64,000 nt of DNA from contig OZ241917.1 of assembly GCA_965203805.1 (NCBI GenBank), forward strand, positions 1,472,001-1,536,000. Reading direction: 5' to 3'. Below are positions 20,479 through 48,271 of this stretch, one piece after another (within the stretch, counting starts at the first letter, position 1; every line of letters begins with the position of its first letter). A program made the translations under genes and the position numbers. This DNA is from Candidatus Latescibacterota bacterium (GTDB taxonomy: Bacteria > Latescibacterota > UBA2968 > GCA-2709665). A model generated the notes under the pieces. The model saw nothing but the letters and a program-made list of their open reading frames with translations, was not told where the DNA came from and did no database searches.

Positions 20479-20544
20479 CCTGCCTGCAGCGCCTGTCTGC
20501 GTGCGTGCCACACGCACAGGCAGGCAGGGCACTGCGCAGGCAGG
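20479..20544. repeat. nested CCTGCCTG..CAGGCAGG hairpin elements
   Basis: Outer element 20479-20544 is interrupted by a 33-nt inner element at 20492-20524. Confidence 0.85.
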
Positions 20545-32026: not shown

Positions 32027-32078
32027 CCTGCCTGCAGCGCAGGGGCACTGCGCAGGCAGGCGTATTCGCGCAGGCAGG
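32027..32078. repeat. CCTGCCTG..CAGGCAGG hairpin (34 nt) followed by the right arm of another copy
   Basis: cctgcctg-cagcgc-aggg-gcactg-cg-caggcagg, then cgtattcg-cg-caggcagg. Confidence 0.85.
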
Positions 32079-40709: not shown

Positions 40710-42019
40710 GGAAGCTCTGATTAAGTTACCTATTGGCACGCCATGCAGAAAGTCGTAGAATTGGAGCGTGAGCCGTCGTGTTGTGATTTCTGATGGATCG
40801 ACATAGAACGAGGGGCCCAGGGATGAAACAAATGAGTTTTTCGGATCTGGCGTACAGGACGAAGAAGAAGCAGACGCGCAGGGAACGTTTTCTGAAAGAG
40901 ATGGATGCGGTGTTGCCGTGGGAGATACTGCTTAAATCGATTGAGAGGAAGTATCCGAAACCTGGCAACGGTCGCCTGCCTGCCGAGTCGGCGCAGGCAG
41001 GTCGTCCGATCGGTGCGGAGGTGATGCTGCGTATCTACTTTATGCAACAATGGTATGGATTGAGCGATCCGGGAATGGAAGACAGTCTCTACGACGTGGA
41101 GTCGATGCGTCCCTGCCTGCTGCAGGCAGGGCTTTGCGGGTGTGAACATCAACGGCGTACCTGATGAGACGACGATCTGCAAATTCCGTCACTTTCTGGA
41201 GCACCATGGGTTGACGGAAGCGTTGTTTCGGCAAACGAAGCGCTACTTGTCCAGGCGGGGATTGATCGTGAACGAAGGCACGATCGTGGATGCCACGATC
41301 ATTCACGCGCCTTCTTCGACGAAGAACAAGGATCGGAAACGGGATCCTGAAATGGCCAGCACGAAGAAGGGCAACACGTGGCATTTCGGCATGAAGGCGC
41401 ACGTGGGCGCGGATGTGAAGGGACGGGTGCACAGTGTGGTGACCACCCCCGCTTCGGTGCATGATTCGCAGGCGATGGATGCCTGTCTGCACGGAAAAGA
41501 AAAGACCATCTACGGCGACAAGGCCTATGCGGATCAGACGCGAAAAGAACGGGCCGAAGCCAACGACGTGGAATGGCGAGTGCTTCGCAAGGCCCGCCGG
41601 GGCAAGCGGCTCAACTGCGCGGATGTTTCGTTCAACAAGAAGAGCAATCGCACGCGCGCACGGGTCCCTGCCTGTGCGTGCTGTCTCACGCACGCAGACA
41701 GGGAACATCCCTTTGGGATCATCAAACACCTGTGGGGCTACCGAAAGGTCAGGTATCGCGGTCTGGCGAAGAATACGGCGCATCTGTTCACCTTGTTTGC
41801 CTTGGCTAACTTCCATATGGCACGTCAGGAACTGGCTACTACATAGGCACCCGTGCCTCCAATTCGGACGCTGGCGGCCAAAATGGCCGGCACCGAGCGC
41901 ATCCGGGGCCGGAATCACCCGTGCAAACCCGAAAGATGACGACCCTCTCAACATAAACAGCCTCCGAAACGACCCATAAGTTACAACTTGCTCATTCCCT
42001 CTGGTTGATCAGAGGTTCC
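40710..42019 (+). mobile_element. IS5-family insertion sequence (1310 bp) with 4-bp TSD TCAA
   Basis: TIRs GGAAGCTCTGATTAA / GGAACCTCTGATCAA; TCAA at 40706-40709 and 42020-42023. Confidence 0.95.
40823..41846 (+). pseudogene. IS5 transposase disrupted by three hairpin insertions (27, 19, 36 nt)
   Basis: TRRERFL, PDETTI..FRH, IVDATII, WHFGMKAH, YGDKAY, EHPF, KVRYRGL. Removing the 82 inserted nt gives an intact 313-aa ORF. Confidence 0.93.
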
Positions 42020-44946: not shown

Positions 44947-45088
44947 AACTGAGACTATCCGGCGCGGAATTCTGTACCGACCATCGTCAGTCCAGTATCA
45001 GTGGACAGACAGAATCCCGCTAGGGGTACTGGAAGTCGCACAGATTGTCTCACGTTGAAATGGCCAAGACTTCTTTTCAGCCTACATC

Positions 45089-45160
45089 CCGTGGGATGGA
45101 GAAGCACAATTGCCGTGGGATGGAGAAGCACAATTGCCGTGGGATGGAGAAGCACAATTG
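45089..45160. repeat. perfect tandem repeat, 3 x 24 bp
   Basis: ccgtgggatggagaagcacaattg x3, with no spacers. Confidence 0.95.
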
Positions 45161-45184
45161 CGCACAAAATCGGGTTCTACGCAC

Positions 45185-46093
45185 TTATCCCGTCCCCACA
45201 AGAACGAGCCCTACGAATAACACGGCGACGCCGATGTACTTAGGAACATATGCAGGTTCTTTAAGAATGAGTATACCCAAAACTGTCCCCATGGGAACGC
45301 TAATTTGCCGAAATGCAACGACATAGCTCACGTTTGAGACAAAGGCGAGACTGATAAGGACCAGGGTATAAGTGGCAAACATGCCGGCCCCCGCCAGTAG
45401 GGCTCGGGATGCCCGCGTTTCCAGAATTTCCCTTACAGCCTTGCGACCACGATGTCGAAATAGAAACCACATCCCCAGCCAGAGAGAGGTCGTAAGGCCC
45501 TCGAAGAAAGCGTATAACATCGCGGCCTGCCACGCTTCAATGGGGAGGGCGGAAGGTTCTCTCAGGCGTCGCAAAGCTTCGTCATCGATGATCGTATAGC
45601 CCGCCGTTGCGAAGGCGGCCGACAATGCAAACAATACAGATGAATTCAGGTAGTTGCCAATTCGAAAATCGCCAAAGCTCTTCATGGGCAGTACAAACAT
45701 CCCAACCACTACCAGCACAATCCCACAGATGCATTGTGCGCTGACTTGGTCCGATCGCTTTAGGAGAATTGTGACAATTATGACCACGATGATTGGAGAG
45801 GACCGCGCGATGGGATAGAGTATGGAAAGGTCTCCCCGACGGTAGGCGTTGGCCAATCCGAGCATATAGAGGGCCTGAACAAAACCTGTTGCGGCAAGCA
45901 GCAGCCATACTGAGGTAGGGAACACTGGAATTGCGGAACCGAATGGAATAAGTGTAGGCATCAAACACAGAAAACCAAACGTGTTGGCCAACAGAAAGAA
46001 AGCAGCGGACGGATGTTCCCGCTTGCCCAGCAAGTTCCAGCCTACGTGAGTTAAGGCCGAGATGAGAATCAGGATGACGGCGGTGAGGGTCAA
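45185..46093 (-). CDS. EamA/DMT family transporter
   Basis: SALTHVGWNLLGK, AYRRGDLS.LYPIARS, YT.ID, VAFRQ.S. Confidence 0.9.
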   Translation of the reverse strand: MTLTAVILILISALTHVGWNLLGKREHPSAAFFLLANTFGFLCLMPTLIPFGSAIPVFPTSVWLLLAATGFVQALYMLGLANAYRRGDLSILYPIARSSPIIVVIIVTILLKRSDQVSAQCICGIVLVVVGMFVLPMKSFGDFRIGNYLNSSVLFALSAAFATAGYTIIDDEALRRLREPSALPIEAWQAAMLYAFFEGLTTSLWLGMWFLFRHRGRKAVREILETRASRALLAGAGMFATYTLVLISLAFVSNVSYVVAFRQISVPMGTVLGILILKEPAYVPKYIGVAVLFVGLVLVGTG

Positions 46094-46177
46094 GGCTATA
46101 TTTCTCAGATTCTACGGGGGGTGTCTTCGTGGAGAATACCCTCATTTGGCAGATAGACTCGACGGCTACCAAATCTT

Positions 46178-48024
46178 GAGTCCACTCCGAAAAGTCGCAT
46201 TTACTTAACCAGGAAAAAGTACTAAATTCGAGGTGTAAACAGGTTGCACTGATTCAGACTGATGTTTGAACACAAAGCAGCGAGGGACCTATGTTTAGAA
46301 GGAGTGCTCCTTCAAGTGCGCCGGATCTGTTTAGCAGTATTGAGTCGCATTTCACAGGTCGGAAGCGGAACCGTCTAAATGATCCGTTGTGCTGGCATAA
46401 TCTGTTTTACGAGCACATCACGTCAAAGGTGGATGAGGATAACTTCCGTGAGGTGTATGCCCCTGGCGTAGGGCGTCCCAATGCGCCGATTCGTCAGTTG
46501 GTGTCGATGATGATCATCAAGGAGGGTTTTGGGTGGAGCGATGCCCAACTTTTCGATCAATGTCGGTTCAACATCCTGGTGATGGGGGCATTGGGGTTGG
46601 TGAATCTTACGGATGAAGTGCCTGTCGAGTCCACGTATTATCTGTTCAAGCAGGCGTTGTATGCGTATCACCTGAAGACCGGTCGCGATCTGATCGGCGA
46701 GACCTTTGTCAGGGTAACAAAGACGCAGGCCAAGGCCTTTGGTGTGTTGGGTCAGCAAATTCGAATGGACAGCCTGCCTGCGCCGAGTTCTGTTCGGCAG
46801 GCAGGTAAGTTGATCGGCTCGAACATTGCGCTTTGTTGTCGGTTGCAGTTGGTGGTGGGTTGCGTACAAGGGTTCTGGAGGTCGTTGGACAAGGCCCAAA
46901 AGGGACGATCATCGGCAACGGATCAGCAGGTTTTGGAGGCTCTGATCCAGGGGAAGCCCCATCAGGTTGTCTACCGTCTCACCAGCGCTGAAAAAGGCGA
47001 GAAGCTACAGGAATTGGGGCTGTTGTTGAGCAGGCTACAAGCGACCTATACCGAGAAAGACAGCGACCAGTACGATCTGATCGTGCGTGTTTTTGGGGAC
47101 CACTATACGGTTTCATCTTCCCCCAAGGAGGTGCTGCCCAAGCCGCATGAAGCGATCTGTTCATCCTCGTTGCAGTCTGCCCATGATGAAGAGGCGGCCT
47201 TTCGTAAGAAAGGGAAGGACAAGGTGAAAGGGTATAGTGTCAACCTCACCGAGACCTGTGATGAGGAGGGCCTCAATTTGATCACGGACGTTGACGTCAA
47301 ACCCGCGACGCGTCCCGACAATGCGTTTGTCCAAGGCGCCATACAGCGGACGCAACAGGTGGTGGACGACGTCGTCGAAGTGTCAATGGATGGGGCCTAT
47401 CATGATCGATCCAACGCCGAGTATGCCGACGAAAACAACAAGCAATTCTATTACAGTGGCCTGCAAGGAAAGCCAGGGCGTTTCAGCTATGAACGCACAA
47501 CAGACGGTGTCAAGGTCACCGATCAACAAACCGGAGAGGTTCACATCGCCCAAGAATACAAACCGGGAAAATACAAAATCACCATCGATGGCAAACCCCG
47601 ATACTTTAAGGAACAACATATCGACAGTTACCTCAATCGCAAACAGATTGAAGCCCTGCCTGACCCCATCAGAAACCGACGCAATAACGTCGAAGCCAGC
47701 ATCTTTCAGTTGAGCTATTACACCAAGGATGGCAAGACGCGCTATCGCGGAGAAAGGCCACACCAACGGTGGGCCTGGTGTCGTGGCCTATGGATCAATC
47801 TGGTTCGGATCAAGAACTACCTCGCTACACCCCCGATGCTCACCGCATAAGTGGGGCTTTCTTGCAAAAAACTCCATACCATAGGCCCTGAGCACCTTCG
47901 TAGCTTGCCCCAAAGTCGATATGCCGCACCTACAACGTTTTATCGTCCACACACGCTAAATCACAATACCCAACCTTGACCACTTGCACCAGACTCTGAT
48001 AACCCCCGTTTTCGGAGGGGACTC
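46178..48024 (+). mobile_element. insertion sequence (IS1182/ISNCY-like DDE), 1847 bp, 6-bp TSD AATCTT
   Basis: 16-bp TIRs GAGTCCACTCCGAAAA / GAGTCCCCTCCGAAAA; AATCTT at 46172-46177 and 48025-48030. Confidence 0.9.
46291..47850 (+). CDS. DDE transposase with an in-frame 33-nt hairpin insertion at the first catalytic Asp motif
   Basis: GRPNAP..W.D, RMDS[LPAPSSVRQAG]KLIGSNI, DGAY, R.RNNVEASI, KTRYRG. Confidence 0.85.
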   Translation: MFRRSAPSSAPDLFSSIESHFTGRKRNRLNDPLCWHNLFYEHITSKVDEDNFREVYAPGVGRPNAPIRQLVSMMIIKEGFGWSDAQLFDQCRFNILVMGALGLVNLTDEVPVESTYYLFKQALYAYHLKTGRDLIGETFVRVTKTQAKAFGVLGQQIRMDSLPAPSSVRQAGKLIGSNIALCCRLQLVVGCVQGFWRSLDKAQKGRSSATDQQVLEALIQGKPHQVVYRLTSAEKGEKLQELGLLLSRLQATYTEKDSDQYDLIVRVFGDHYTVSSSPKEVLPKPHEAICSSSLQSAHDEEAAFRKKGKDKVKGYSVNLTETCDEEGLNLITDVDVKPATRPDNAFVQGAIQRTQQVVDDVVEVSMDGAYHDRSNAEYADENNKQFYYSGLQGKPGRFSYERTTDGVKVTDQQTGEVHIAQEYKPGKYKITIDGKPRYFKEQHIDSYLNRKQIEALPDPIRNRRNNVEASIFQLSYYTKDGKTRYRGERPHQRWAWCRGLWINLVRIKNYLATPPMLTA

Positions 48025-48271
48025 AATCTTACATTGACAAACAAATACCCCTACGTGTCAATCTTTACGTGTCAATCTTATAGTATGACAATTCCTCTTT
48101 GAAAATAGAGAACAACGGAGAGTGCGAACGGGTATAGAACGATGTTTGATGTATCAGGTCGCGCAAAGGCCTCCAATAGAGCCTTGGTTCCTTTCACGAT
48201 GGAACTCCTGCAACCCTCAAAACGGATCAAATCCGGTCTGCCGACTGGACATGATTGGATGCAACTCCGGG

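Follow-up and report, generated by a model that had tools for sequence, protein, structure and literature searches.

A 33-nt palindromic insert beside a probable catalytic aspartate of an IS1182-like transposase and its family of small, probably mobile repeats

How does a short hairpin come to lie in frame beside what is probably the first catalytic aspartate of a transposase, and does this position reveal anything about how such hairpins find or keep their places? The question is raised by a block of 33 nt within an insertion sequence of the window, which here means the whole 64-kb stretch of DNA that was analysed. It is likely that the block is a copy of a family of tiny mobile repeats, palindromic and non-coding, of the REP/SDR/RPE-like kind, which persist in dispensable DNA. 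The locus comprises the following features.

46178..48024, plus strand: host insertion sequence 'IS2', 1847 bp, with the ends GAGTCC...GGACTC
46291..47850, plus strand: transposase ORF of IS2, 519 aa, with an N-terminal DUF772 and invariant D160, D367 and E468
46773..46805, plus strand: 33-nt palindromic mini-element, read through as LPAPSSVRQAG and inserted between G and T

The boundaries of IS2 are those proposed in the first-pass annotation, with terminal repeats that match at ~16/17 positions and a 6-bp target duplication, AATCTT, at 46172-46177 and 48025-48030. The transposase is a DUF772 protein of an IS1182-like kind: DUF772 is recognised with 38 bits, above its own cut-off, while the IS1182 model NF033551 scores 81 bits and thus stays below its cut-off of 270. 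In an alignment of 35 proteins, D160, D367 and E468 are invariant, as is the run R158-M159-D160-S161, and the three acidic residues are the probable DDE triad. The designation of D160 as first catalytic Asp is based on conservation, predicted topology and weak fold matches to DDE enzymes (best E 2e-3) rather than on experiment. Foldseek returned no match for the transposase at E <= 0.001, and the sequence search for a homologue of solved structure gave a single, spurious match (E 0.25).

The letters at 46773-46805 read GAC AG/CCTGCCTGCGCCGAGTTCTGTTCGGCAGGCAGG/T AAG within the 519-aa ORF, with slashes marking the borders of the insert, exactly as first annotated. The element is built from 8-bp arms, CCTGCCTG and CAGGCAGG, a CG bulge, an inner stem of CCGA and TCGG, and a 7-nt loop. 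As single-stranded DNA, its fold reaches -11.4 kcal/mol with a z of -4.4. It enters between codons 161 and 162, adding 11 residues one position past the invariant Asp of R-M-D-S. In the predicted model, the insert is the stretch of lowest confidence (residues 163-177, pLDDT below 50), right after the strand 156-163 that bears D160. The 11-residue loop probably impairs the transposase. Rfam yielded 0 matches at gathering score across the 64-kb window.

Comparison with empty counterparts confirms that the block is a genuine and exact insertion of 33 nt. The sequence ATGGACA/GTAAGTT, with exactly the 33 nt absent, is found in seven paralogous IS copies (~80% identity) and in a degenerate one, and the ten IS copies from four related genomes are likewise all empty at the equivalent site. 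In one of these ten, an 8-nt deletion begins at the insertion point. At the protein level, the first-pass annotation had expected an 11-aa insertion relative to homologues and had considered that loops of variable length might explain it. All 34 aligned homologues lack the insert, none of them varies in length at the site, and the modal length of the homologues is 508 aa, which equals 519 minus 11. Contigs from the organism's own runs X1-X3, which cannot show rare variants, contain no hairpin-less form of 46773.

The insert belongs to a family of palindromes of 19-37 nt with the general form CCTGCCTG...CAGGCAGG, found at 189 loci with perfect arms and at roughly 300 if degenerate arms are included. 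The pattern CCTGCCTG-N(2-30)-CAGGCAGG occurs five times in the window, while 0.00 occurrences are expected from 100 shuffles. Genome-wide, 222 pattern matches (N up to 60) form the 189 loci, and the simple elements among them comprise 49 distinct sequences, each present in at most 29 copies. The length distribution has peaks at 33, 31, 27 and 19 nt. The architecture is stem-bulge-stem-loop, in which the arms of 8-9 bp are constant, a one-sided CG bulge is usual, and the inner stem-loop is variable. In an unbiased census, the family stem is the top 8-mer hairpin seed and the most over-represented hairpin stem of the 5.87-Mb genome. Members nest in one another and in other repeats, as two further loci of the window illustrate.

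20479..20544, no strand: intergenic composite cluster of family members
32027..32078, no strand: 34-nt family member, followed closely on its downstream side by a further copy of an arm

The orthologous spacers of the 20479 cluster measure ~5 nt (G013) and ~33 nt (G002) compared to 178-206 nt here, the segment with the hairpins being absent from them or much reduced. The number of copies per genome ranges from 0 to 190 among 31 relatives. For the subfamily of the window insert, 75 of the 80 loci among the matches listed come from five MAGs with one phylum label, and the family is restricted to one lineage. Literature searches with the stem sequence gave only unrelated primer matches, and those combining the phylum name with 'palindromic' gave CRISPR mentions only.

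A second insertion sequence of the window carries three related hairpins.

40710..42019, plus strand: IS5-type element 'IS1', 1310 bp, with the 4-bp duplication TCAA
40975..41001, plus strand: 27-nt family member, in frame, at GNGR/RPIG in the DUF772 domain of IS1
41112..41130, plus strand: 19-nt minimal family member, frameshifting, at ESMR/RFAG, dividing the IS1 transposase between two ORFs
41667..41702, plus strand: 36-nt related hairpin with the arms CCTGCCTG and CAGACAGG, in frame, at RARV/EHPFGIIK in IS1

The first-pass annotation had assigned the inserts at 46773 and 40975 to one stem and to two unrelated IS families, and both assignments hold. The reverse complement of the 46773 insert shows the same arms and the same CCGA and TCGG inner stem, and the IS1182-like DUF772 protein of IS2 differs in type from the IS1 transposase, an IS5-type DDE_Tnp_1 protein. 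IS1 is present in five genomic copies of 99.9-100% identity, each with three hairpins. Relatives of IS1 display the corresponding empty states. In X4, the one small-share run used, contigs lack exactly the 27-nt and the 36-nt blocks: the 27 nt of the 40975 block are absent from a contig, and a contig of this run skips 41667-41702. P0142, which comprises 54 member sequences in public data, lacks both blocks and, like P0141, forms a single ORF without the 19-mer of 41112; the 36-nt hairpin is present in P0141. P0142 thereby represents the intact, hairpin-free form of IS1. A trans helper was sought by tblastn of the genome, which found only the five hairpin-bearing copies and no other IS5-type paralogue, and five relatives yielded no IS1 at E <= 1e-30.

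The manner of insertion can be read from the filled and empty pairs. Gap-free empty paralogous sites are available for 61 of the 189 loci; they show exact insertion without target duplication. In same-genus genomes, inserts are absent from orthologous spacers and from a gene for an OEP lipoprotein. Of 160 simple elements, 81 are flanked by G^C, and where an empty paralogue confirms an oriented site, G occupies position -1 in 28/30 and C position +1 in 27/30. In other genomes, G^C surrounds 65 of 81 elements. No extended target motif beyond G^C emerged, and the flanks contain no tetranucleotide tag. The search for an autonomous parent with the same arms was unsuccessful, as long-range arm pairs show no excess (53 observed, 42 expected) and the one candidate, of 3.1 kb, codes for an oligopeptide ABC transporter.

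The empty sites show that the whole palindrome is the unit and that it is pasted exactly and without duplication, mostly between G and C or T. Its targets include further family copies, other repeats, IS elements and, now and then, a cellular gene, and it is retained where the DNA is dispensable, namely in intergenic spacers and, in either frame, in IS genes. One 33-nt copy entered the IS1182-like transposase gene, where it is predicted to be translated as a loop after the probable first catalytic Asp. Its position at D160 probably reflects a hot spot at the DNA level rather than recognition of catalytic motifs. Mobilisation would take place in trans, with the element folded as single-stranded DNA, and the best guess for the enzyme is a transposase of the HUH/Y1 type.

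A specific candidate is the resident RAYT, with the family as its cognate REP, mobilised via HUH single-strand cut-and-paste. The genome encodes a RAYT (NF047646, 104 bits, cut-off 80), and a hairpin one base off the window insert lies a few bases past its stop codon. This RAYT, of 203 aa, is one of two Y1 proteins, the other being a methylase-like protein of 1235 aa with a Y1 domain. HUH enzymes of IS200/IS605 elements and RAYTs use hairpin substrates and insert without target duplication, and the behaviour of the family is compatible with this chemistry. Furthermore, the six genomes with an orthologous RAYT match (~97-105 bits), which are related and hence not independent, hold 16-190 hairpins each. 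However, the adjacency was rejected as proof of a cognate pair, as it is not conserved: a CCTGCCTG hairpin lies beside the RAYT in G000 only, and the RAYT loci retrieved from relatives have no such neighbour. In both G000 and G001, the RAYT instead sits in arrays of another palindrome, CGAGGGCA-TCCC-TGCCCTCG, some copies of which are preceded by GTAG and which is expected to be the cognate REP. In addition, G015 holds 140 hairpins with only a 47-bit RAYT match, while G017 and G018 have RAYT matches above the cut-off and no hairpins. Moreover, the element ends lack a GTAG or CGTC tag, and there is no orientation bias towards a replication strand (85 vs 72 for all elements, 29 vs 21 for bulge-oriented elements). 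The RAYT is considered an unlikely candidate.

The four proteins with an insert at site 161 are not monophyletic, and their tree needs four gains or losses; the empty P0001 is the sister of the filled sibling, and the supports that separate filled from empty rows are 96-100. The absence of monophyly indicates that the site was either hit repeatedly or precisely emptied. Such recurrent occupation is unlike the prediction of simple random landing. Alternatively, the site may have been hit once, long ago, so that exchange between IS copies and between hairpins, by recombination or gene conversion, would have produced the present scatter of 33-nt forms, 30-nt forms and empty close relatives. Multicopy IS elements recombine readily, the DNA flanks of the site are highly conserved, and the four filled copies share the orientation and frame of the element. 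In other host repeats, too, different subfamilies share one site and orientation. A single ancient hit is nonetheless rather improbable, given that the interiors of the 33-nt and 30-nt forms represent distinct subfamilies, each of which is also found at other genomic loci and in a different genus, and that the branch supports are high. In addition, the ORFs of the two IS2 copies with hairpins are intact and have a dN/dS of 0.45 between them, which suggests function for most of their divergence and weighs against an inactivation of the enzyme by the insert.

At the other extreme, the hairpins might be ultra-small mobile elements with a mechanism of their own, site- and orientation-specific, duplication-free, precisely reversible and driven by a non-RAYT enzyme. 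Hot spots, including those beside catalytic residues of transposases, would then be repeatedly filled and vacated, and the hairpins would reversibly switch off or restrain the activity of IS elements in this lineage. This reading is regarded as doubtful.

The first-pass annotation had gone in a different direction and proposed that the hairpins are aimed at catalytic motifs or selected as silencers that tame an IS while leaving its ORF open. Several positions seem to favour this. The window insert lies one residue after D160, a sibling IS2 copy has a second insert ~5 residues before E457 of the consensus (E468 of the window protein), and the 36-nt hairpin of IS1, its third, directly precedes E267. 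An IS630-like copy carries a hairpin 7 residues after the Asp of what we take to be its DN..H motif, and mid-gene hosts are mostly transposases (11 of 16 host ORFs). The description 'again at a catalytic motif' stands for 46773, one residue after an invariant Asp, but not for the 40975 insert, which lies in the N-terminal 'GRP' motif of DUF772 and not at a catalytic residue. In the IS2 family, hairpin-type peptides occur at ~10 positions, and in the IS1 family at 4; among these ~14 sites, 3 fall within 7 residues of a conserved D/D/E, compared to ~1.5 expected, and 11 lie far away. Two are directly adjacent to a conserved catalytic residue (S161/K in IS2 and V/E267 in IS1), with ~0.4 expected and P ~0.06 in a post hoc test. 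These numbers leave room for a slight bias towards catalytic residues, while the sole conserved feature of the target remains G^C/T.

The distribution of the family across the genome also speaks against an aim at active sites. With a home-made gene model and IS-like mask, both approximations, 158 of the 189 loci lie outside predicted genes and only 31 inside, although genes cover 82% of the genome; 136 loci are intergenic. By the same approximations, hairpin density per Mb is 244 in IS-like repeats, 135 in intergenic DNA and 4.2 in cellular coding DNA. Since the density in IS-like repeats is of the same order as that in intergenic DNA, survival in dispensable DNA suffices to explain the pattern. 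Selection for knock-outs with an open ORF is not supported by the inserts in IS genes, about half of which are 19-20 nt long and shift the frame, including the 19-mer at 41112 in the five-copy IS1. IS1 reached five identical copies despite its three hairpins, and the site is empty in all ten IS2-family copies of hairpin-rich relatives. Targeting of, or selection at, catalytic motifs is thus judged very unlikely. The original proposal is only partly supported: nothing shows an aim at catalytic sites, and copies fall mostly in dispensable DNA.

It is hardly credible that processing of the RNA, or translation itself, removes or skips the hairpins and so renders them harmless to host genes: the success of the frameshifted IS1 at 99.9-100% identity in a genome without another IS5-type paralogue would fit this idea, but the hairpin-free P0142 form could have acted in trans before its loss, many predicted full-length proteins contain hairpin peptides, and all five inserts in non-transposase ORFs have lengths of 3n (90 of 189, 48%, family-wide), which is expected only if these inserts are translated. 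Indeed, copies in cellular ORFs are confined to tolerant margins and to multiples of three, as in the OEP lipoprotein gene, where the insert adds about 20 residues. Small same-strand ORFs separated by the 31-nt subfamily had prompted the idea of an integron with attC sites. This was rejected because the hairpin-dense region has XerD (361 bits) as its recombinase and the 'cassettes' are the housekeeping genes for L9, S6, L25, Pth, IspE, PPase and UvrC.

Several known kinds of small repeats resemble the family. As described in excerpts of Di Nocera et al. (2013, PMC3733652), REPs are GC-rich imperfect palindromes of 20-40 bp with high copy number and mostly extragenic location, and GTAG or CGTC end tags define their superfamilies. 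[quoted passage not shown] The present family likewise consists of short imperfect palindromes in high copy (189 loci), mainly extragenic (158/189), clustered and sometimes located in ORFs. It differs from REPs in the absence of a GTAG or CGTC end tag, in a resident RAYT that is flanked by another palindrome, in the combination of constant arms with highly variable interiors, and in exact empty sites, which reveal that nothing but the palindrome is inserted, at G^C. Unlike REPs as described in those excerpts of PMC3733652, many copies lie inside IS transposase genes. Rickettsia palindromic elements (RPEs) are presented there as palindromic repeats in frame inside ORFs, whose proteins are likely still functional (PMC3733652). 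As with RPEs and intragenic REPs, inserts of the family appear to be read through in otherwise intact ORFs (the window ORF and the OEP lipoprotein gene) and are absent in homologues, judging from the sequences. RPE-1, however, is much longer (~100-150 bp) and its hosts are obligate intracellular, whereas IS genes house most of the intragenic copies found here, with a frameshift in half of these cases.

The small dispersed repeats (SDRs) of cyanobacteria, reportedly described by Elhai et al. in 2008, are mobile repeats of ~20-30 nt that enter other repeats and each other, prefer palindromic targets and are lineage-restricted; they are not known to have an enzyme of their own. The present family, which is also tiny, mobile, nested in repeats, lineage-restricted and inclined to a palindromic target, resembles these SDRs, but occurs in another phylum and has another sequence. 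MITEs are non-autonomous elements of 70-300 bp with terminal inverted repeats and target duplications. With them the family shares inverted-repeat arms and a presumed mobilisation in trans, but it measures only 19-37 nt, leaves no duplication at the 61 gap-free empty sites, and no longer parent with the same ends was found. The Neisseria dRS3 repeat combines constant short inverted arms with a variable core and is known as a target of other elements, not as an inserting unit. The family has the same division into arms and core, but is itself what inserts. A preference for palindromic targets has been suggested for one SDR in particular, as SDR5 may insert at the HIP1 palindrome (according to the part of PMC5861425 that deals with it).

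The hairpin family is thus a further member of the REP/SDR/RPE-like repeats, which are already known as a type. For annotation, it illustrates that in-frame palindromic repeats pass unnoticed, as in a transposase with an 11-residue loop by its active-site Asp or an outer-membrane lipoprotein with ~20 extra residues. The adjacency to the catalytic residue is real, yet the data do not demonstrate targeting of catalytic motifs, which tempers an attractive idea. For the biology of mobile elements, the family combines many exact filled and empty pairs with nesting and with a site that was occupied recurrently, in a phylum that has received little study and with no obvious enzyme. The pairs, the nesting and the recurrent site make it a usable system for investigating how REP/SDR-like elements move.

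The block at window positions 46773-46805, CCTGCCTGCGCCGAGTTCTGTTCGGCAGGCAGG, is a palindromic hairpin of 33 nt sharing its stem with a genome-wide family, the CCTGCCTG hairpins. It lies in a transposase gene of an insertion sequence (IS), referred to as IS2:

Window 46178-48024: host IS2, with terminal repeats matching at about 16 of 17 positions and a 6-bp duplication, AATCTT
Window 46291-47850: transposase ORF of 519 aa, enclosing the 33-nt insert

Both the block within the ORF and the well-preserved IS ends had been described in the first-pass annotation, and both are borne out. The ORF starts with a DUF772 transposase domain; its top NCBIfam match is the IS1182 family, at 81 bits far under the cut-off of 270. 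Folded as single-stranded DNA, the block reaches -11.4 kcal/mol (z = -4.4), which none of 200 shuffles equalled. At window 47655-47662, native A-L-P codons of the transposase spell CCTGCCTG by coincidence. The sibling, a second hairpin-filled IS2 copy of the source genome, has a composite hairpin of a 45-nt type about 20 nt downstream of these codons, immediately before RNNVE. Elsewhere in the window, at about 44955-45330, a short peptide appears three times in ORF translations of both strands (e.g., HPTAIVLL x3), which indicates that a DNA unit of about 24 nt is tandemly repeated downstream of a 302-aa membrane-protein ORF.

The 33-nt block is an insertion. The source genome (5,865,457 bp, single contig) contains nine other copies of IS2, namely seven at about 80% identity, a degenerate one and the sibling at 92.6%. 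Comparison with these paralogues, as the first-pass annotation had proposed, revealed an empty site, ATGGACA/GTAAGTT, in those seven and in the degenerate copy, with precisely 33 nt absent. The site is also empty in 10 of 10 IS2-family copies taken from four related genomes. The modal length of the best matches among 1601 homologues is 508 aa, corresponding to 519 minus 11. A loop of naturally variable length, named beforehand as the competing explanation, was looked for: R-M-D-S is invariant in a 35-sequence alignment, and none of 34 homologues varies in length there. One IS2-family copy of a related genome (L150, G011:C2:533110-536477) carries an 8-nt deletion whose start coincides with the G^T insertion point; an imprecise loss of the hairpin may have left it as a scar, but this is a single case.

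The window contains five occurrences of the stem pattern (0 expected) and the genome 222, merging to 189 loci. A further 107-131 arms with a partner at up to 2 mismatches represent degenerate members. The stem tops an unbiased census covering every 8-mer hairpin seed of the genome. The 160 simple elements comprise 49 distinct sequences with at most 29 copies apiece, and commonly consist of arms of 8-9 bp, a mostly one-sided CG bulge, an inner stem and a loop of 4-7 nt. Four copies are one-base variants of the window's insert. Across 31 related genomes, family copy number varies between 0 and 190. When species-representative genomes were scanned for the insert's subfamily, 95 stretches were recovered; five MAGs labelled Candidatus Latescibacterota account for 75 of the 80 listed.

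Two further hairpin stem families, both having C-rich 5' arms, are also over-represented in the source genome, namely CCCTCTCC/GGAGAGGG (about 80 seeds) and CCCCCTTC/GAAGGGGG (about 70 seeds). In the core chromosome at about 3.30-3.47 Mb (L044, L045), mosaic units of about 150 bp fill the spacers between housekeeping genes, each pairing a member of the 31-nt CCTGCCTG subfamily with a hairpin of the CCCTCTCC...GGAGAGGG type. There, coding density falls to 51-72%.

For 61 of the 189 loci, a paralogous empty site aligns without gaps across the junction; therefore, the palindrome alone is inserted, with no target duplication. At oriented sites with a verified empty paralogue, the base before the element is G in 28 of 30 cases and the base after it is C in 27 of 30; in other genomes, 65 of 81 elements have G^C flanks. 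Elements are nested within one another and within other dispersed repeats. Insertion is also lineage-specific and recent: the window's cluster at 20479 is absent from same-genus orthologues, as is a nested double hairpin, about 58 nt long and in frame, in an OEP-family outer-membrane lipoprotein gene (G000:C1:2599319-2599523, L011). The latter, of the same 33-mer subfamily as the window's insert, directly follows the lipobox Cys and is missing from the orthologues of the same-genus genomes G001 and G008.

Such a hairpin would move as a folded single strand, through a trans-acting enzyme. That the resident RAYT serves this role is unlikely, even though the genome encodes a bona fide one (104 bits, cut-off 80) with a family member directly 3' of its stop codon. 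This RAYT (G000:C1:4533506-4534117; L001/L018) is embedded in arrays of another palindrome, CGAGGGCA-TCCC-TGCCCTCG, an arrangement repeated in G001; GTAG precedes some copies in the arrays, and the layout is REPtron-like. The CCTGCCTG hairpin occurs at none of the RAYT loci retrieved from relatives, co-occurrence of the two across genomes is imperfect, and the family has no strand bias. A second, RAYT-like Y1_Tnp domain lies within a 1235-aa ORF (G000:C1:4546977-4550684; L031:978-4685), together with DUF1156 and a D12-class adenine methyltransferase signature. Similar RAYT matches inside open frames of 1200-1441 aa were seen in the related genomes G008, G011 and G016.

According to a home-made gene model, in which 3889 genes cover 82% of the genome, only 31 of the 189 loci fall within predicted genes, many of them at the very start of the 5' end.

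Density of hairpin loci by type of DNA
IS-like repeats: 33 loci in 135 kb, 244 per Mb (raised by IS copy number)
Intergenic DNA: 136 loci in 1.01 Mb, 135 per Mb
Cellular coding DNA: 20 loci in 4.72 Mb, 4.2 per Mb

Transposases make up 11 of 16 host ORFs examined, one of them (L008) under the Pfam cut-off. A 43-nt locus at 3621228 lies inside a possible cellular ORF. Insert length is a multiple of three in all five non-transposase hosts, compared with 90 of the 189 loci overall. In the three with a Pfam match, the insert lies at the N- or C-terminal margin; the other two may not be genuine genes. Within IS genes, inserts measure 19-20 nt and cause a frameshift in about half of the cases. This distribution is as expected from broad insertion combined with purifying selection against damaging copies.

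Position 161 of the IS2 family is filled in four proteins: the window copy (33 nt), the sibling (30 nt), P0005 and P0010. The sibling's insert belongs to a different subfamily, present elsewhere and in another genus. The four are not monophyletic, and the tree requires four changes; P0001, empty at this site, groups with the sibling as its sister (99% support). The two filled copies of the source genome have a pairwise dN/dS of 0.45, close to the 0.36 against an insert-free lineage. Recent separate hits or precise loss fit these data better than a single old knock-out, with recombination among IS copies as an alternative source of the scatter.

A neighbouring element is laden with three hairpins:

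Window 40710-42019: IS1, an IS5-type element, with further copies in the source genome near 1308652, 2630961, 3679997 and 5651643

Its inserts measure 27 nt, 19 nt (frameshifting) and 36 nt, the last immediately before a conserved E. The five copies are 99.9-100% identical and occupy different sites, and a separate 4-bp duplication accompanies each. No other IS1 paralogue, intact or not, was found in the source genome, nor IS1 in five relatives searched. Contigs from one metagenome run lack precisely the 27-nt and 36-nt blocks, and public data include a natural hairpin-free, single-ORF form of 313 aa (P0142). The simplest reading is that IS1 may have been mobilised in trans by an intact form later lost.

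In the IS2 transposase, D160, D367 and E468 are invariant in the 35-sequence alignment. In the AlphaFold model (mean pLDDT 78), D160 is at the end of strand 156-163, D367 comes after a strand and E468 lies within a helix; inserted residues 163-177 are the lowest-confidence stretch. Foldseek returned no match at E <= 0.001, and the best weak matches are all DDE enzymes. From these residues, the predicted topology and the weak fold matches, it is a reasonable inference that the insert adjoins the putative first catalytic Asp. Among 135 aligned IS2-family proteins, consensus positions 86, 106, 161, 196, 254, 294, 312, 440 and 495/496 bear hairpin-type peptides, and the sibling has a further one at about 452; in the IS5-type family the positions are 51, about 88, 238 and 266, where P0142 confirms each insertion point. 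Of these 14 sites, three are at most 7 residues from a conserved D/D/E (about 1.5 expected), and two are immediately beside one (about 0.4 expected; P of about 0.06 by our own post hoc arithmetic). The 40975 insert, described in the first-pass annotation as another strike on a catalytic motif, sits instead in the GRP motif of DUF772 and at no catalytic residue. Given these counts and this position, targeting is therefore unsupported, and a weak bias towards catalytic residues is conceivable. Thus, the original observation stands and its interpretation in part, without the aim at catalytic motifs: the window's insert is an ordinary family member, with no evidence for a system directed at such motifs.

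REPs lying wholly within ORFs and coding for extra residues are described, as are Rickettsia RPEs (PMC3733652), and insertion at the HIP1 palindrome is cited for SDR5 of Nostocaceae (PMC5861425). A literature search of limited extent found no description of the CCTGCCTG hairpins. Unlike REPs, they have neither a GTAG/CGTC tag nor a cognate RAYT flanked by their copies, and they do not show the features of MITEs. In their behaviour they resemble in-ORF REPs, Rickettsia RPEs and SDR5, and apparently form a REP/SDR-like family undescribed so far.
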